From an uncultured Pseudomonadota bacterium (GTDB lineage Bacteria > Pseudomonadota > Alphaproteobacteria > Rs-D84 > CACZYB01), in NCBI GenBank assembly GCA_902785275.1, contig CACZYB010000003.1, positions 1 through 64,000 of the forward strand: a stretch of 64,000 nt of DNA, written 5' to 3'. The notes under the pieces are model-generated. The model searched no databases, had not been told where the DNA came from, and worked only from the letters and a program-made list of their open reading frames with translations. A program made the position numbers and the translations under genes. Each line of letters begins with the position of its first letter. Within the stretch, counting starts at the first letter, position 1. Shown here piece after piece: positions 5,009 to 50,184 of this stretch.

Positions 5009-5863
5009 ATGAAACTATCTATTATTACAATTTGTCTTAACAATAAATATATTGAACGAACATGCAAAAGTATCTGTATGCAGAATTTTGATGATTTTGA
5101 ATGGATTGTTATTGATGGTAAATCTAACAAAGAAACAATTAAAAAAATTCAAAAATACAAAAGCCATATATCAAAGTTTATATCAGAGCCTGACTGTGGA
5201 ATCTATGATGCTATGAATAAAGGGATATTGTTGGCAACAGGTGAATATATATCCTTTATGAATGCCGGTGATTGCTTTTATAGTAATGATACCCTTTTTA
5301 ATATTTTTAGGAGAAATGATTACAGTTCGGATATACTTTACGGTGATGTTAATATAGTAAAAAATAAAAAGTCCATTATTGAAAAAAATCCGAAAAATAT
5401 TACAAAACAATTCCTTTTTTATGGGGTTATTAATCATCAAGCATGCCTTATAAAAAAAGAGTTATTTTTTATGTATGGGCTTTACAGTCTTGAATATAAA
5501 ACTGCATCGGATTATGAAAAATTACTTTTGTGGGAAAGAAATGGATGCACATTTAAATATCTTAATCAAACTATTGCCATACATTACAGAAACGGAATTT
5601 CTTCGAACAAGCGAATTGTGATAAAAGAACGAAAGTTAATACAAAATATTTACTTTTCCAGTAATGATAAAAAATCATTTGATGCGAAGTATAAAATAAA
5701 ATTTGGAGGATTAAATATCCTTTCGATAAAAGATATTTTTCCCAAAAAATATATCAAACTTTTCGGTTTAATTACGATTTTAAAAATAAAGAAAAATTTA
5801 ATTTACCTATTCGGACTCAACTTTTTACCAATACTTAAAATAAAGGAAAATATAAATGAGTAA
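5009..5863 (+). CDS. Glycosyltransferase family 2 (WcaE/WfgS-like, possible fucosyltransferase)
   Basis: [20 protein letters not shown] and HQA motifs; adjacent to gmd/fcl. Confidence 0.92.
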
Positions 5864-10183: not shown

Positions 10184-11112
10184 TGCGACCTAAAATTTCG
10201 ATTATTACCGTAGTTTATAATATTATAAAAAATGGTCGAAAGGCGAGTTTTTTAAGAATGTTGGAAAGTGTAAAGGCTCAAGCTTATGGCAATATTGAAC
10301 ATATTATTATCGACGGGGATTCAGATGATGGAACAAAGGATTTTTTGAAAAGTCTTGGACTTAATTTTTTTTCTAAAAAAGACTCTGGCATTTATGATGC
10401 GATGAATAATGGGATAAAAAAAGCCAGTGGGAAATACATTACATTTCTTAATTCAGACGATTTTTATTTTAATGAAAATTCTATTAAGAAAAGTGTTATG
10501 AAACTGGAAATTACACAGGCAGACTTTTCATTTGGAAAAACAAAATATATTGATGAAAATGGAAAAACTGTAAACGGTATTTTTCAGGAAAATCCGGATA
10601 TAAGAAATATATTTTTGACTATGCCATACTCCCATCAATCTATGGTTATAAAGACTGATGTTTTAAAAAAATTTATGTTTGATACAAAATTTAAAATTGT
10701 TGCGGATTTTGACTTAACATTAAAACTTTTTTTGCATCACTATAACTTTGTATACATACCCGAATATATTGTTAATTTCCAGATTGGCGGTGCTTCGAGC
10801 AATATTGAAAATGTTCACAGAGAAACGGTTAAACTTTATAAAAGAACTTTGGAAAGTCTTGGTATAAATCTTAAAAATAATGAAATTTTTGATTTGGAAT
10901 ATAAAAAGCTAATCCCTGGAAATATTGCAAAAATTTTAAGCAAAAAATTTGGATTTAAGATTAATAAAAAACTGGAACGAAAGGATATATTTTACAAAAA
11001 ATTTGTTTTTTGTGGGATACCTTTATTCAAACTTATTAAGGCAGAAAATTTTTTTGATTTTTATATTTTTAACATAGTTAAGTTGTTTAGTGTAAGGTGG
11101 AAAATATGTTAA
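10180..11112 (+). CDS. Glycosyltransferase family 2 (WcaE/WfgS-like)
   Basis: IDGDSDDGT, DSGIYDAMNNG, LNSDD, HQS. Confidence 0.93.
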   Translation: MMRPKISIITVVYNIIKNGRKASFLRMLESVKAQAYGNIEHIIIDGDSDDGTKDFLKSLGLNFFSKKDSGIYDAMNNGIKKASGKYITFLNSDDFYFNENSIKKSVMKLEITQADFSFGKTKYIDENGKTVNGIFQENPDIRNIFLTMPYSHQSMVIKTDVLKKFMFDTKFKIVADFDLTLKLFLHHYNFVYIPEYIVNFQIGGASSNIENVHRETVKLYKRTLESLGINLKNNEIFDLEYKKLIPGNIAKILSKKFGFKINKKLERKDIFYKKFVFCGIPLFKLIKAENFFDFYIFNIVKLFSVRWKIC

Positions 11113-33951: not shown

Positions 33952-36477
33952 ATGGTTGAAACCAAAGATAAAGCAACAGAAGACATTACTATTGTTTCAA
34001 AAGGTGATTTGAACGATAACGTGGAAAAAGAAAACGAATTGGAAGAAAAGGAATATTGTTTACTTCCTCTTCGCGATATTGTTATTTTTCCAAGTATGAT
34101 TGTTCCAATATTTATTGGTCGTGGAAAATCTATTGCCACAGTAGAAGAAGCAATGAAACGTGGAAAACAAATTATCCTTGTTACCCAAAGGGATGCTTTG
34201 GTAAATAACCCTAAACGTGAAGATTTGTTCGATATTGGTGTAAAGGCAAATATTATTCAGATGCTAAGACTTCAAGATAATACTGTAAAGTTGGTTATTG
34301 AAGCTACATCCAAGGTAAAAATTACAAGCTTTAATGTTTCAAAACCATATTGGGAAACAACCATTGATTATATTTCTGAAGATTTAAGCTTTGAGGATAA
34401 TAAAGATATTGAGATGCTTACAAAATCTGTGCGTAACAGTTTTTTAAGGTATATCAAATTCAGTAAAGATGTTACCGTTGAAAATGTTACCGGTTTGGAA
34501 ATGGTGACAAGCCCTGTTATTCTTCTTGATACTATCAGTATGAGTATGAATATGCGAATCGAAAAGAAACAGGAAATTTTAGAAGCTCCAAATATTACCG
34601 AAAAGTTAGAAAAACTTTACACTGCGATTGAAACAGAACTTGATTTTATGAAAGTAGACAGACGTATTCGTTCACGTGTAAAGCAATCTATTGATAAAAA
34701 CCAACGTGAATTTTATCTTTCCGAACAGATGAAAGCTATTCAAAAAGAACTTGGCGATGACGGGGAAGATTATGATGATTTGGAAAAGAAGATTGATAAA
34801 ATCGGCCTTTCGAAGGAAGCATATTTAAAAGCAAAAACAGAGATGAAAAAACTTAAAAATATGTCTCCTCAATCACCAGAATATTCAATTTTAAGGAATT
34901 ATTTGGAATGTCTTCTTTCACTTCCTTGGTCAAAAAAATCCGAGCTTGATAAATCAATAGATGAAGCAGAAAAGATTTTAGATGAAGAACACTATGCTCT
35001 TGAAAAAGTAAAGGAAAGAATTTTGGAGTTTTTGGCAGTACAAAAACGTGTTGGCTGTTCAAAAGGAACTATACTTTGCTTTATGGGCCCTCCGGGTGTT
35101 GGTAAGACATCACTTGGTCGTGCGATTGCAAAGGCTACTGGTCGTGTATTTGAAAAACTTTCTCTTGGCGGTGTTCATGATGAAGCAGAAATTAGAGGCC
35201 ACAGAAGAACATATATTGGTGCACAATGTGGTAAGATTTTATCCGTTATGAAAAAGGCTGGCGTTAACAATCCTCTTATTATGCTTGATGAAATTGATAA
35301 GATGGGAAATGATTATCGTGGCGACCCTGCAAGTGCGATGTTAGAAGTTTTGGATCCAGAACAAAATGTTGCGTTTAATGATCATTACTTGGATTTGGAT
35401 TATGATTTATCCAATGTGATGTTTATTGCTACTGCAAACAGCTATGATATACCTCGCCCTCTTCTTGATAGAATGGAAGTTATTGAACTTTCCGGTTATA
35501 CAGAAGATGAAAAACTTGAAATCGCGAAAAGACATATCATTCCAAAAACACTTGTTAAAAATGGATTGGATAAAAATGAAATTTCAATTTCTGATGGTGC
35601 AATAAAGGATATTATCAGATACTATACAAAAGAATCTGGTGTTCGTGGATTGGAACGTCAAATCGATAAGTTGATGAGAAAATCCGTACGAAAGATTGGT
35701 GAAAAAAATGCATCAGAAGAATCCCTTTTCGAACTTAAAGAGGAAACTTTGAAACCTCAGGATGATAAGAATATTAAAATTACACCTGAAAATCTTTCAA
35801 ACTTCCTTGGGATAAAAAGATTTGATTTCGGAAAGTCAGAAGAAGAAGACAGTATCGGAACCGTAACTGGACTTGCATGGACAGAAGTTGGTGGTGAACT
35901 TTTACAGATAGAATCGGCAGTTATGGCCGGTAAAGGTTTGGCTGTATTTACTGGAAAGCTTGGCGATGTAATGAAAGAATCTATTGAAACTGCAAAATCA
36001 TTCGTTCGTTCACATTCAGCACAGTTCGGTATTAATCCAAAGATTTGGGATAAAATCGATATTCATATTCACGTTCCAGAAGGTGCAACACCAAAGGATG
36101 GACCTTCGGCTGGTATTGCGATGATGACATCAATTCTTTCGACACTTACTGAAATTCCTGTACGAAAGGATGTTGCAATGACTGGGGAAATCACTCTTCG
36201 TGGACGTGTACTTCCAATTGGTGGATTAAAGGAAAAATTATTGGCTGCACTTCGCGGTGGAATAAAAACTGTGGCTATTCCTTTTGAAAATGTTAAGGAT
36301 TTAGAGGAAATCCCTGATGTTGTAAAGAAGGGATTAAAGATTATTCCTGTGAAAACTGCGGATGAAGTTTTGGAAATCGCCCTTTCGAAACCGGTTACTC
36401 CGATAAAAGAAGTTGGTGATTTTTTCGAAAACTTGCTTAAAACCCCAGTAAAATCTCAGGGTGAAATAGTTCAATAA
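33952..36477 (+). CDS. lon: Lon protease
   Basis: GPPGVGKTS, DEAEIRGHRRTYIGA, PKDGPSAG. Confidence 0.99.
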   Translation: MVETKDKATEDITIVSKGDLNDNVEKENELEEKEYCLLPLRDIVIFPSMIVPIFIGRGKSIATVEEAMKRGKQIILVTQRDALVNNPKREDLFDIGVKANIIQMLRLQDNTVKLVIEATSKVKITSFNVSKPYWETTIDYISEDLSFEDNKDIEMLTKSVRNSFLRYIKFSKDVTVENVTGLEMVTSPVILLDTISMSMNMRIEKKQEILEAPNITEKLEKLYTAIETELDFMKVDRRIRSRVKQSIDKNQREFYLSEQMKAIQKELGDDGEDYDDLEKKIDKIGLSKEAYLKAKTEMKKLKNMSPQSPEYSILRNYLECLLSLPWSKKSELDKSIDEAEKILDEEHYALEKVKERILEFLAVQKRVGCSKGTILCFMGPPGVGKTSLGRAIAKATGRVFEKLSLGGVHDEAEIRGHRRTYIGAQCGKILSVMKKAGVNNPLIMLDEIDKMGNDYRGDPASAMLEVLDPEQNVAFNDHYLDLDYDLSNVMFIATANSYDIPRPLLDRMEVIELSGYTEDEKLEIAKRHIIPKTLVKNGLDKNEISISDGAIKDIIRYYTKESGVRGLERQIDKLMRKSVRKIGEKNASEESLFELKEETLKPQDDKNIKITPENLSNFLGIKRFDFGKSEEEDSIGTVTGLAWTEVGGELLQIESAVMAGKGLAVFTGKLGDVMKESIETAKSFVRSHSAQFGINPKIWDKIDIHIHVPEGATPKDGPSAGIAMMTSILSTLTEIPVRKDVAMTGEITLRGRVLPIGGLKEKLLAALRGGIKTVAIPFENVKDLEEIPDVVKKGLKIIPVKTADEVLEIALSKPVTPIKEVGDFFENLLKTPVKSQGEIVQ

Positions 36478-36627
36478 AACTTTTATTTTATATAAAAAAA
36501 GTAAGGTCATATGTTTAATTAAGCGATTTTCGCATTGAATATATGACTTTATTTTTATTTTTTTTAAGAATTTTGAAAAAAGTGCTTGATTTAATTAAAA
36601 ATATGCTTATAATATGTGAAATATGTT

Positions 36628-36704
36628 GCGGGCGTAGCTCAGTTGGCTAGAGCGCAACCTTGCCAAGGTTGAGGTCGTGGGTTCGAGCCCCATTGCCCGC
36701 TCCA
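36628..36704 (+). tRNA. tRNA-Gly (GCC)
   Basis: GCGGGCG acceptor stem, anticodon arm CAACC-TTGCCAA-GGTTG, GTTCGAG T-loop, encoded CCA. Confidence 0.97.
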
Positions 36705-36730
36705 AAATTAAATTTGTTTTTTTTCATGTT

Positions 36731-36787
36731 CTCCCGTATGGGAGGTTTTCTTTTTCATTTGTTCCCAGCGTAAAAGCTGGGTTTTTT
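36731..36787 (+). terminator. Tandem terminators after tRNA-Gly
   Basis: CTCCC-gtat-GGGAG and CCCAGC-gtaaaa-GCTGGG hairpins, each followed by T-rich sequence. Confidence 0.75.
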
Positions 36788-36841
36788 ATTGGAAAAATAA
36801 GGGAAAATGAGCTTTGTAAACTGGAAAATTCACTATGACAA

Positions 36842-36968
36842 ATAAACGACCGTCTAGATGATATAGTCAAAGATTTTAGGAATTTTAACCCTAAAAGTCA
36901 ATAAAATTCTATGAAAGTCAACATATCCAATAATTGCATAATACTATATCAAATAGACGGTGGTTTAT
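36842..36968. repeat. 26-bp imperfect inverted repeats (36842-36867, 36943-36968) enclosing 75 bp; candidate invertible segment
   Basis: Left ATAAACGACCGTCTAGATGATATAGT vs reverse complement of right ATAAACCACCGTCTATTTGATATAGT, 23/26 identical. Confidence 0.88.
36873..36901 (-). promoter_or_regulatory. Sigma70 promoter inside the inverted repeats, pointing away from the downstream operon
   Basis: Minus strand TTGACT-TTTAGGGTTAAAATTCC(17)-TAAAAT. Confidence 0.65.
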
Positions 36969-37036
36969 GAATATTGAAAAATATGGAAAAATCTAGATTT
37001 GAAAAGAAATTTAACTCAAAAAAGGAGAGAAGCAAT

Positions 37037-37315
37037 ATGAATTTTAAAAAATTTTGGTTGGATGAAAAAGCTTACGTATTGATACAAAGTGATGCAGGAC
37101 AATATATAGTTGTAAAATCATCTGAAAGTTGGAAGAAAACTATAGTGGAAAAATTAACTGAATTAATCGAAAAAGGAGAAAAATTAAATTTAACAGAAAA
37201 CCAAAAACAATACATAGAGAAATATCCTTCTGATAAGAATGATTCTCAAACAACAGATAGTTTGGGAGCTGTTTTAATGCAATATTTAGAAGAAAACCCT
37301 AAAAAGGAGATCTAA
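37037..37315 (+). CDS. Hypothetical protein (92 aa)
   Basis: AAAGGAG RBS before the ATG at 37037 (ORF track starts at TTG 36974); stop is 3 bp before the next gene. Confidence 0.7.
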   Translation: MNFKKFWLDEKAYVLIQSDAGQYIVVKSSESWKKTIVEKLTELIEKGEKLNLTENQKQYIEKYPSDKNDSQTTDSLGAVLMQYLEENPKKEI

Positions 37316-37318
37316 AAA

Positions 37319-38323
37319 ATGAAAAAATTTATTTTATCAGCATTATTATTAGTAAGTATATCTTCAGTAGTAAATGCCCAATCTTATAATGATTATAAAA
37401 AACTTATGGAAAAGAATAATACATTTGATTCATTAACAGGAGTTTCTGTTAATGTTGGTTATGATGTATTTTCAGGTGGTATAGATTTCCAAACATCATA
37501 TTCTTTATATAATAAATTTAGTGTTAAATTAGGTTTAGATACAAAATCATTTGATAATAAAACAACATCATTTTATAGTACAAAGAAATTGGGTGAGGAT
37601 CTTTGGGGTGCAAAAGATGTAGAGGGGAATGGTATATATAGAGTACCACGTAATTATCCATATATCTACAAAGCTAAATTTGAACATGATGATTCAATAT
37701 CTTCTAATTCATATAAATTTGGAGTAGGGTATCAAATTAATAATTATATTGAATTAACAGGTGGATATTCATTTGGTGGAAAATATACAGAAAATTATCA
37801 TATACATGATCCAAGATCATTTTTTGAAGCATATGTTCCAAATAATACAGGTTATTCATTTTTCTTAGGGTATTCAGAAAAAGATGATTTATATTATCTA
37901 GTAACTGGTTCTGATAGAGGATCTGTTGTTAAATCAGCAAAATTTATGGTTGAAAGAGAAATGAAAGGACCATATTTGGGTGTAAATTTCAATATACCAT
38001 TTAATAATAGATTTTCATTTTATACTAATTTAGATGTGACTTTTATAGATAAACCAAAAGTATCATATGATATGGAATTTTTTGATGTAAATGTAAATTA
38101 TGTATTGCGTAGAAATGATGAAACTAACCCAGGTACATATACAGCAGTATATCGTGATAGTAATGGTAATACAGCATCTGAAAATAGAATTAGTATATAT
38201 GATGAAAGATCTCAAAAAACAATAAAAATGGCTATGCAACCTGTTTTGGAAGATTTTAAAGAAAAAATAGATATGGATACTGAAGTTATTTCTTTGAAAA
38301 TGGGTATTAAATATAATTTTTAA
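37319..38323 (+). CDS. Outer-membrane beta-barrel protein
   Basis: Signal peptide, alternating aromatic/Gly beta-strands (YKFGVGYQIN, GPYLGVNFNIPF), C-terminal LKMGIKYNF BAM beta-signal. Confidence 0.85.
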   Translation: MKKFILSALLLVSISSVVNAQSYNDYKKLMEKNNTFDSLTGVSVNVGYDVFSGGIDFQTSYSLYNKFSVKLGLDTKSFDNKTTSFYSTKKLGEDLWGAKDVEGNGIYRVPRNYPYIYKAKFEHDDSISSNSYKFGVGYQINNYIELTGGYSFGGKYTENYHIHDPRSFFEAYVPNNTGYSFFLGYSEKDDLYYLVTGSDRGSVVKSAKFMVEREMKGPYLGVNFNIPFNNRFSFYTNLDVTFIDKPKVSYDMEFFDVNVNYVLRRNDETNPGTYTAVYRDSNGNTASENRISIYDERSQKTIKMAMQPVLEDFKEKIDMDTEVISLKMGIKYNF

Positions 38324-38336
38324 ATATAATAAAACT

Positions 38337-38362
38337 AACTCCCCGTTATTTGGGGAGTTTTT
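38337..38362. terminator. Terminator between the convergent OMP and lolD genes
   Basis: AACTCCCC/GGGGAGTT stem with a T-run. Confidence 0.8.
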
Positions 38363-49197: not shown

Positions 49198-49274
49198 TGG
49201 TGTGTCCAAGAGGATTCAAACCTCTGACCTTTGGTTCCGGAAACCAACGCTCTATTCAGCTGAGCTATGGACAC
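49198..49274 (-). tRNA. tRNA-Arg (CCG)
   Basis: GTGTCCA acceptor stem, anticodon arm TTGGT-TTCCGGA-ACCAA, encoded CCA; variant D-loop and T-loop. Confidence 0.93.
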
Positions 49275-49374: not shown

Positions 49375-50184
49375 ATGACAAATGCTAAAGTTATTGTTGT
49401 AGGTAATGAAAAAGGTGGAAGTGGAAAATCAACGCTATCCATACACCTTGCTGTATCTTATCTTTACTCTGGATATAAGGTTGCAACAATAGACCTTGAT
49501 GGACGTCAGGGTACTCTTACACACTATATCGAAAATAGGGTTAGATATGCCGAAGAAAATAAACTTGATTTACCTATGCCAGAGCATTTGGTTGTAACTC
49601 CTTCTCAATTTTCAAACAAGCGTAGTTCCGAAGAAGATGAAGAACAGCTTGATGAAGAAATAAAAGATTTAAAAAATGATTATGATATTATAATTATTGA
49701 TACACCGGGAACATTCAGCCATCTTTCTAATGCGGGACATAAAAATGCTGATATTTTGATAACTCCGGTTAATGATAGTTTGGTTGATATTGATGTTATT
49801 GCAAATATCGATCCTAATTCAAAGGAGATTATTTCCGAATCACAGTATACTCAGAATATCCGTGATATTCAAAAGAAACGTGCCGATTTGGGAAAGGATG
49901 AACTTTTTTGGATTGTTTTAAGAAACAGAATTTCTCATATCGATGCAAAAAATAAACGTGAAGTTGACTCAATCCTTAAAAAATTACAGGAAAAACTTGG
50001 CTTTACCTATATTTCCGGTATTGGTGAAAGAGTTGTTTACCGTGAAATGTTTTTAAAAGGATTGACTATTCTTGACCTTTTAAAGATTGATAAGGATGAA
50101 ATTTCTATTTCACATATTGCTGCAAAGAATGAACTTTTGACAGTACTTAACACTATAAATATCCCGCTTAAACAAGATATTTAA
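49375..50184 (+). CDS. mipZ: Division-plane positioning ATPase MipZ
   Basis: [45 protein letters not shown]. Confidence 0.93.

Follow-up and report, generated by a model that had tools for sequence, protein, structure and literature searches.

Phase variation under a master serine invertase is best known in gut Bacteroides, where it bears on capsule diversity, phage resistance, and immune interactions, and where the regions inverted by Mpi of Bacteroides fragilis are ~170–230 bp long. Here we describe an element of 127 bp in an uncultured alphaproteobacterium of the gut whose genome measures only ~1 Mb. It lies in a 64,000-nt stretch of DNA (contig CACZYB010000003.1 of assembly GCA_902785275.1, positions 1 to 64,000; hereafter the window), between a tRNA-Gly gene and a two-gene operon that encodes a 92-aa protein and a secreted 334-aa protein. 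The element is probably an Mpi-type invertible promoter, captured in the OFF orientation and controlled in trans, and it appears to be an orphan member of a four-switch, invertase-controlled regulon for surface variation.

One account of B. fragilis has Mpi inverting 13 regions, seven of them capsular polysaccharide promoters (PMC4747536), and another reports that deletion of mpi locks all promoters in that species (PMC10403206). Invertons are described as widespread, with >75% of those predicted by PhaseFinder shorter than 300 bases (PMC11602134). The system described here shares with Mpi (Ssr2) a recombinase of the NF009949 family and several dispersed short promoter segments with related inverted repeats, scattered upstream of surface-structure operons. 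It differs in its host, which does not belong to the Bacteroidota, in having two or three invertase paralogs rather than one, and in that two of its switches stand directly beside an invertase gene. The core of the B. fragilis Mpi repeat presumably resembles the window repeat; the Mpi repeat consensus that we assumed had no match in a full-text literature search.

The Hin/hix, Gin/gix, and Cin/cix systems are alike in the class of small serine invertase, Gin being the closest solved relative of two recombinases described below (E = 6.7e-13), and in their sites, which pair in inverted orientation and in which a short core with a nonpalindromic central dinucleotide separates two inverted half-sites. 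Those systems enclose both the invertase gene and a Fis-bound enhancer within ~1–3 kb of invertible DNA, whereas here a ~111-bp segment holds only a promoter, the invertase gene is external to it or sits on a different contig, and we identified no enhancer; the hix site is 26 bp long, and the sites here are ~36 bp. As a short invertible promoter that would turn a surface structure ON and OFF, the element also resembles fimS with FimB and FimE and the RecV switches of Clostridioides difficile, but those recombinases are tyrosine recombinases and the neighbours here are serine recombinases. A full-text literature search returned only Bacteroidales, E. coli, and general surveys and no such system for this lineage; the supplements of the surveys, which might list such loci, were not opened. 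Invertons as a kind are already known, and the alphaproteobacterial system is probably a further case.

A Conserved Promoter Between Inverted Repeats

The arms of the repeat (36842–36867 and 36943–36968) are 26 nt long, complementary at 23/26 positions (88%) and separated by 75 nt. They form the top-ranked pair among inverted repeats of at least 20 nt within 400 nt in the whole window, and the only one with at least 23/26 matches at a spacing of 20–300 nt; 20 first-order Markov simulations contained none. The coordinates and identity given in the initial annotation of this DNA are thus confirmed. The element starts 137 nt past the tRNA-Gly(GCC) gene. Its strong single-strand fold (z = −5.7) arises because the inverted repeat itself folds, and an Rfam search of 36400–37400 gave nothing above gathering score except the tRNA. 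The two terminators that had been proposed to insulate the operon from the tRNA were recovered as well (Table 1), in a region where the terminator scan found six against 0.6 expected.

Between the arms, the minus strand carries the sigma-70-type promoter reported earlier, TTGACT-17-TAAAAT. It is oriented away from the operon, and the OFF call is therefore correct. The plus strand offers a single promoter-like site between the tRNA and the start codon at 37037, a weak 9/12 match at 36835–36862, in agreement with the earlier remark that the operon has no good promoter of its own. Promoter-like matches are not enriched in the region (16 vs. 14.8 ± 4.0 in shuffles), and because a lone match of this kind is insignificant in AT-rich DNA, the claim of a promoter rests on conservation across the family. 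We aligned nine family elements after orienting them by the promoter. All nine keep a −35 that begins with TTG, a 17-nt spacer, and a −10 of the form TAnnnT. The −35 hexamer is TTGACT in eight elements and TTGCTT in one, and the −10 letters vary (TAAAAT, TAAGAT, TATATT, TATAAT, TATTAT, and TAATAT). Fixed geometry combined with varying −10 letters is a sign of selection for promoter function. The order along the promoter strand is site A, ~50 nt, −35, 17 nt, −10, ~8 nt, site B, so that the promoter exits through site B in 9/9 elements; the inner half-site of site A is almost invariant across the alignment and the ~50 nt that follow it are partly conserved.

Table 1. Positions of the switch, its neighbours, and the family copies of the same genome (positions without a contig label are those of the window; C labels denote contigs of the genome)
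Feature	Position	Strand	Basis	Remarks
tRNA-Gly(GCC)	36628..36704	+	ARAGORN; Rfam tRNA, 64.9 bits	left neighbour of the switch
two intrinsic terminators	36730-36745, 36764-36781	+	terminator scan	shield the switch from tRNA read-through
left site	36832..36867	.		outer half 36832-36847, spacer GACC 36848-36851, inner half 36852-36867
invertible segment (putative)	36851..36960	.	core spacing and alignment	~111 bp between putative crossovers; holds the promoter
sigma-70-type promoter TTGACT-17-TAAAAT	36873..36901	-	10/12 consensus positions	exits via left site, away from operon (OFF)
right site	36943..36978	.		inner half 36943-36958, spacer GGTG 36959-36962, outer half 36963-36978
92-aa gene	37037..37315	+	strong AAGGAG ribosome-binding site	no signal peptide
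334-aa secreted protein gene	37319..38323	+	AAGGAG ribosome-binding site	signal peptide
bidirectional terminator	38337..38359	.	terminator scan	ends the operon
window element	C3 36842-36968			precedes 92-aa and 334-aa genes
second copy	C1:~86550-86682			between EptA/B-type phosphoethanolamine transferase gene and 199-aa serine recombinase gene
third copy	C5:~5423-5600			between glycosyltransferase operon and 195-aa serine recombinase gene
fourth copy	C12:~10801-10925			precedes three family-less genes

Four Elements in One Genome and Their Distribution in the Genus

The initial annotation suggested looking for further copies of the repeat. A search of the window's own assembly (G000; 1.05 Mb in 18 contigs, 95.7% complete) found three besides the one in the window, and a motif census counted nine sites, all confined to these four loci. 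All four switches lie upstream of operons for surface-related or secreted proteins. The transferase beside the C1 element matches PF00884 and PF08019; the glycosyltransferase operon on C5 opens with a recombinase-like ORF of 188 aa and also contains genes for a DUF4422 protein and a Glf-like one.

A DNA search detected the family in 7/13 other genomes of the genus and in 0/27 genomes drawn from the other genera of its family and order. A symmetric two-arm pattern, which misses the C1 and C5 elements with their deviating arms, returned seven elements in 5/14 genus genomes and none in a control read backwards; a two-arm pattern had no match in a metagenome contig collection. A 16-mer scan of a genome contig collection produced 112 stretches, almost all of them chance matches, among which the four family members were all already known.

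Short length, 26-nt terminal inverted repeats, an internal promoter, and more than one copy are also what one would expect of a miniature inverted-repeat transposable element that resembles the Correia elements of Neisseria and carries an outward promoter by chance, an alternative already raised in the initial annotation. Yet there are only four copies, each adjoining an invertase gene or preceding a surface operon, the arms have the architecture of recombinase sites, the flanks show no target-site duplication, and no transposase is associated with them. A transposon of this kind is, in our view, extremely improbable.

Mpi-Like Recombinases Outside the Window

The genome has four serine recombinase hits and five tyrosine recombinase hits (PF00589), all outside the window, where the initial annotation had likewise seen no recombinase. 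It had proposed one acting in trans, and three Mpi-like genes are available for that role, two of them directly beside sister elements. The 199-aa protein of C1:86762–87361 scores 276.4 bits against NF009949 ("master DNA invertase Mpi family serine-type recombinase"; cut-off 272), and the 195-aa protein of C5:5679–6266 scores 266.6 bits, below that cut-off; the two are 84% identical to each other, and the catalytic motifs are intact in both. A third, more distant gene (C1:218114–218704, 205 bits) has its own fixed promoter, TTGACT-16-TATAAT, and no inverted repeat of note within ~2 kb, and it may encode a constitutively expressed invertase. None of the five tyrosine recombinases adjoins a family element. 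The 188-aa Mpi paralog at C5:4805–5371, which is the first gene driven by the C5 switch, has lost the catalytic arginines and keeps the helix-turn-helix.

NF009949 matches occur in 12/13 other genomes of the genus and, in another genus of its order, in 9/11 genomes. Of 14 genomes used as controls, two have matches (B. thetaiotaomicron and C. glutamicum), and one of these two exceeds the cut-off. Across 30 Mpi-like loci in relatives, seven have a family element directly upstream and one has a remnant outer half-site only. The promoter faces the invertase in five of the seven invertase-adjacent switches and away from it in one (C5); the remaining one is decayed (L159).

Several neighbouring observations concern these genes and sister switches. 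At C1:84918–87361 (L010:4919–7362) the promoter currently faces the 199-aa invertase gene, and a flip would trade invertase expression for modification of lipid A or lipooligosaccharide. The C5 switch (C5:4805–6266, L009) comprises three sites, of which the first type, with central AA, occurs once and the second, palindromic with TT, twice in tandem; it is followed by a 513-aa large serine recombinase gene (C5:6634–8175). The fourth switch (C12:8183–10925, L011) is also OFF, with the promoter TTGCTT-17-TATAAT and an extended −10 TG; its cargo proteins of 273, 247, and 321 aa belong to no family, two of them have signal peptides, and the locus adjoins an apparent rRNA region. In a relative, one Mpi gene (L144, G011:C2:169543–170136) keeps only an outer half-site and flank, the switch having apparently been lost. 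The repeats upstream of more distant Mpi-like genes in relatives are different ones; in L148 (G006:C2:36443–37027), for instance, a 16-nt pair has a core related to that of the window repeat.

Architecture of the Putative Recombination Sites

Alignment suggests sites of ~36 bp, each made of a 16-bp half-site, a 4-bp spacer, and a second 16-bp half-site, of which the originally annotated arms are the inner part. The left outer half of the window element agrees with the family half-site at 13/16 positions. The central dinucleotides, where crossover would take place, are AC at 36849–36850 on the left and GT at 36960–36961 on the right. A core-to-core spacing of 122 nt, which places ~111 bp between the putative crossovers, is identical in 7/10 family elements. 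Outer half-sites are clearest on C5, where complete palindromic sites adjoin each other.

The family uses the spacers CAAC, CACC, GACC, GAAC, and GGAG, with a central dinucleotide of AA in four elements, AC in six, and GA in one. In 11/11 elements this dinucleotide is the same in both arms, which fits a serine recombinase because a 2-bp staggered crossover needs identical overlaps. We regard the match as modest evidence for a 2-bp staggered cut.

Each site would accommodate one dimer of an Mpi-family serine invertase, the likely sources being the genes at C1:86762–87361 and C5:5679–6266 and possibly that at C1:218114–218704. By analogy with known serine invertases, synapsis, double-strand cleavage at AC/GT, subunit rotation, and religation would then flip the ~111-bp segment. 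In the assembled state the promoter, judged by its sequence, fires leftwards through the left site towards the terminators behind tRNA-Gly and leaves the operon OFF. Inversion would, by mirrored coordinates, place the −35 near 36909–36914 and the −10 near 36932–36937, and transcription would start near 36944, cross the right site and then ~93 nt of leader, and proceed through both genes to the terminator at 38337.

The two-half-site architecture would also suit paired operators, that is, palindromic ~36-bp sites at which the catalytically dead paralog of C5:4805–5371, with its helix-turn-helix, or Mpi itself binds and loops the DNA with no inversion. A fixed promoter aimed at tRNA terminators would, however, have nothing to regulate, catalytically intact invertases adjoin the sister elements, and which end of the promoter segment meets a given flank differs between loci (see below). 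We consider such operators very unlikely.

Evidence on Inversion

Two comparisons of flanks bear on flipping. On the recombinase side, the C1 element and the start of contig G010:C11 of a relative have a flank that is homologous over at least 40 nt; this flank joins the −10 end of the promoter on C1, but the −35 end in G010:C11 and on C5. The flank on the cargo side, which starts GGTGGTTTATGAATATTGAAAA, is common to the window and G010:C11 over 22 nt, and GGTGGTTTATGAATATTGAAAA stands on the −35 end in the window (OFF) and on the −10 end in G010:C11 (ON).

Assembly breaks point in the same direction. We compared Logan contigs, which drop minor variants, from four runs (X1, X2, X3, and X5) of the 21 listed; X1, which holds 92% of the sampled words, is the likely source sample. 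In X1, an 11,775-nt contig (depth 22.6) reaches from beyond 38400 down to 36849 and stops at exactly that base, and 36707–36848 is left without any aligned X1 contig. Base 36848 is the first to differ (G vs. C) between the parental and the inverted left junction. A metagenome contig of 1,124 nt (L172) has its first base exactly at 36954, which is the last position at which the parental right junction and the inverted one still agree. Breaks at these positions fit flipping because an assembly graph must branch there if both orientations coexist, and they occur at the predicted branch bases in two independent assemblies.

Other candidates for such evidence were rejected. Contig starts near the Mpi genes of relatives were set aside because several coincide with the 3′ end of the Mpi gene, so that the repeated gene itself could have caused them. 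The orthologous loci L012 (G011) and L019 (G001) have homologous flanks and an A-type half-site at opposite ends, and we considered them as a clean flip, but the pair aligns in neither orientation (scores 23 vs. 25); the interior of L019 is diverged and its left core mutated.

Several points speak against active inversion at this locus. The flank comparisons span different loci or species and not one population, and coexisting strains that differ structurally at the sites would yield the same assembly breaks. No contig with the inverted orientation was found at the locus in the Logan contigs of the four runs, from which minor variants have been dropped, and both strains with a readable orientation, the window and an X3 relative, are OFF. 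Within the switch, the right outer half-site (36963–36978) is degenerate, and the spacers of the two sites differ at one flanking position (GACC vs. CACC). The agreement of central dinucleotides is partly expected of any inverted repeat, since the arms were found as repeats, and 2 of the 11 elements (G009 and G013) are identical in sequence. Finally, ~111 bp between crossovers is very short for a serine invertase synapse, and no enhancer or bending-protein site was identified for the switch.

Some of these points are what a locked relic would show, a switch of Mpi-type descent that no longer flips and whose operon is silent or otherwise expressed: the shared OFF state of the window and the X3 relative, the degenerate right outer half-site, and the one-base difference between spacers. 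A decayed member of the family, with a mutated left core and diverged interior, also exists (L019/L159). The window copy nevertheless retains intact inner half-sites, central dinucleotide, and promoter; its degenerate right outer flank is kept in G010:C11, which suggests function, and in two data sets the assemblies break at precisely the bases where a branch is predicted. On this balance a relic seems unlikely.

The breaks could also mark coexisting strains if the sites served to exchange cassettes of downstream genes. L172 and the X3 contig carry an unrelated stretch of ~309 nt in place of the 92-aa gene (window 36980–37314), with outer-membrane proteins (OMPs) that are 90–95% identical to the 334-aa protein, and in two relatives (L014, G009:C4; L013, G013:C3) an identical switch and ~75-nt leader are followed by unrelated genes. 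Against exchange, the replacement does not start at the right site but well downstream of it, and the inverted orientation of the sites and their nonpalindromic central dinucleotide favour inversion. We hold that strain boundaries or cassette exchange are a very improbable explanation, and that inversion of the promoter segment is the probable one.

The Downstream Operon

The 334-aa protein, whose gene follows that of the 92-aa protein, is likely an outer-membrane beta-barrel, judging by its typical signal peptide and a C terminus that ends in KYNF with alternating hydrophobic residues. It matches DUF2490 at 22.4 bits, below the threshold of 29.8, and its neighbours by language-model features (Atlas) are OmpA_like (PF16961) clusters at a score of 0.95 with only ~155 shared features. 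A single-sequence AlphaFold model was uninformative, with a predicted local distance difference test score (pLDDT) of 29.7. All tested parts of the interpretation in the initial annotation were borne out; the beta-barrel fold could not be modelled.

By sequence the 334-aa protein is an orphan. Orthologues were found in 0/13 genomes of the genus at E ≤ 1e-10, a word-index search returned one cluster, 93% identical, and HMMER against 1.84 billion representatives gave three hits, of which the sole strong one is a fragment of the same protein. The OMP of L172, which follows a different first gene, is 95% identical to it. The 92-aa protein has no Pfam or NCBIfam match.

Possible Circuitry and Significance

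Tentatively, and with considerable doubt, the genus may run a minimal inversion circuit that wires itself through invertase/surface toggles, a dead-paralog lock, slaved orphan switches, and compact synapsis. Invertase-adjacent switches would toggle between transcription of the invertase and of a surface operon; the dead paralog would be produced only while one switch stands ON and, by binding the sites that the switches have in common, would lock the remaining ones or bias them; and orphan switches such as the one in the window would be slaved in trans. Were this so, the ~111-bp spacing would imply enhancer-independent synapsis in a ~110-bp loop, helped by a sharp DNA bend. We know of no serine-invertase switch more compact than ~111 bp between crossovers.

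The same logic in this bacterium would mean that even strongly reduced gut genomes of ~1 Mb invest in stochastic surface variation, and that the spread of the Mpi family, together with its sites, extends beyond the Bacteroidota. With four switches, two or three invertases, delimited sites, and a dead paralog, the system is small enough to be a handy model for site choice by invertases and for very short inversions. For annotation, the 334-aa orphan and the other three operons would best be treated as phase-variable, and contig breaks are to be expected at the sites.

One further repeat in the window deserves mention. The second-ranked inverted repeat (49954–50080) has 30-nt arms that are 73% complementary and 67 nt apart; both arms contain TTGAC motifs, and the repeat lies ~700 nt from tRNA-Arg(CCG) at 49198–49274.

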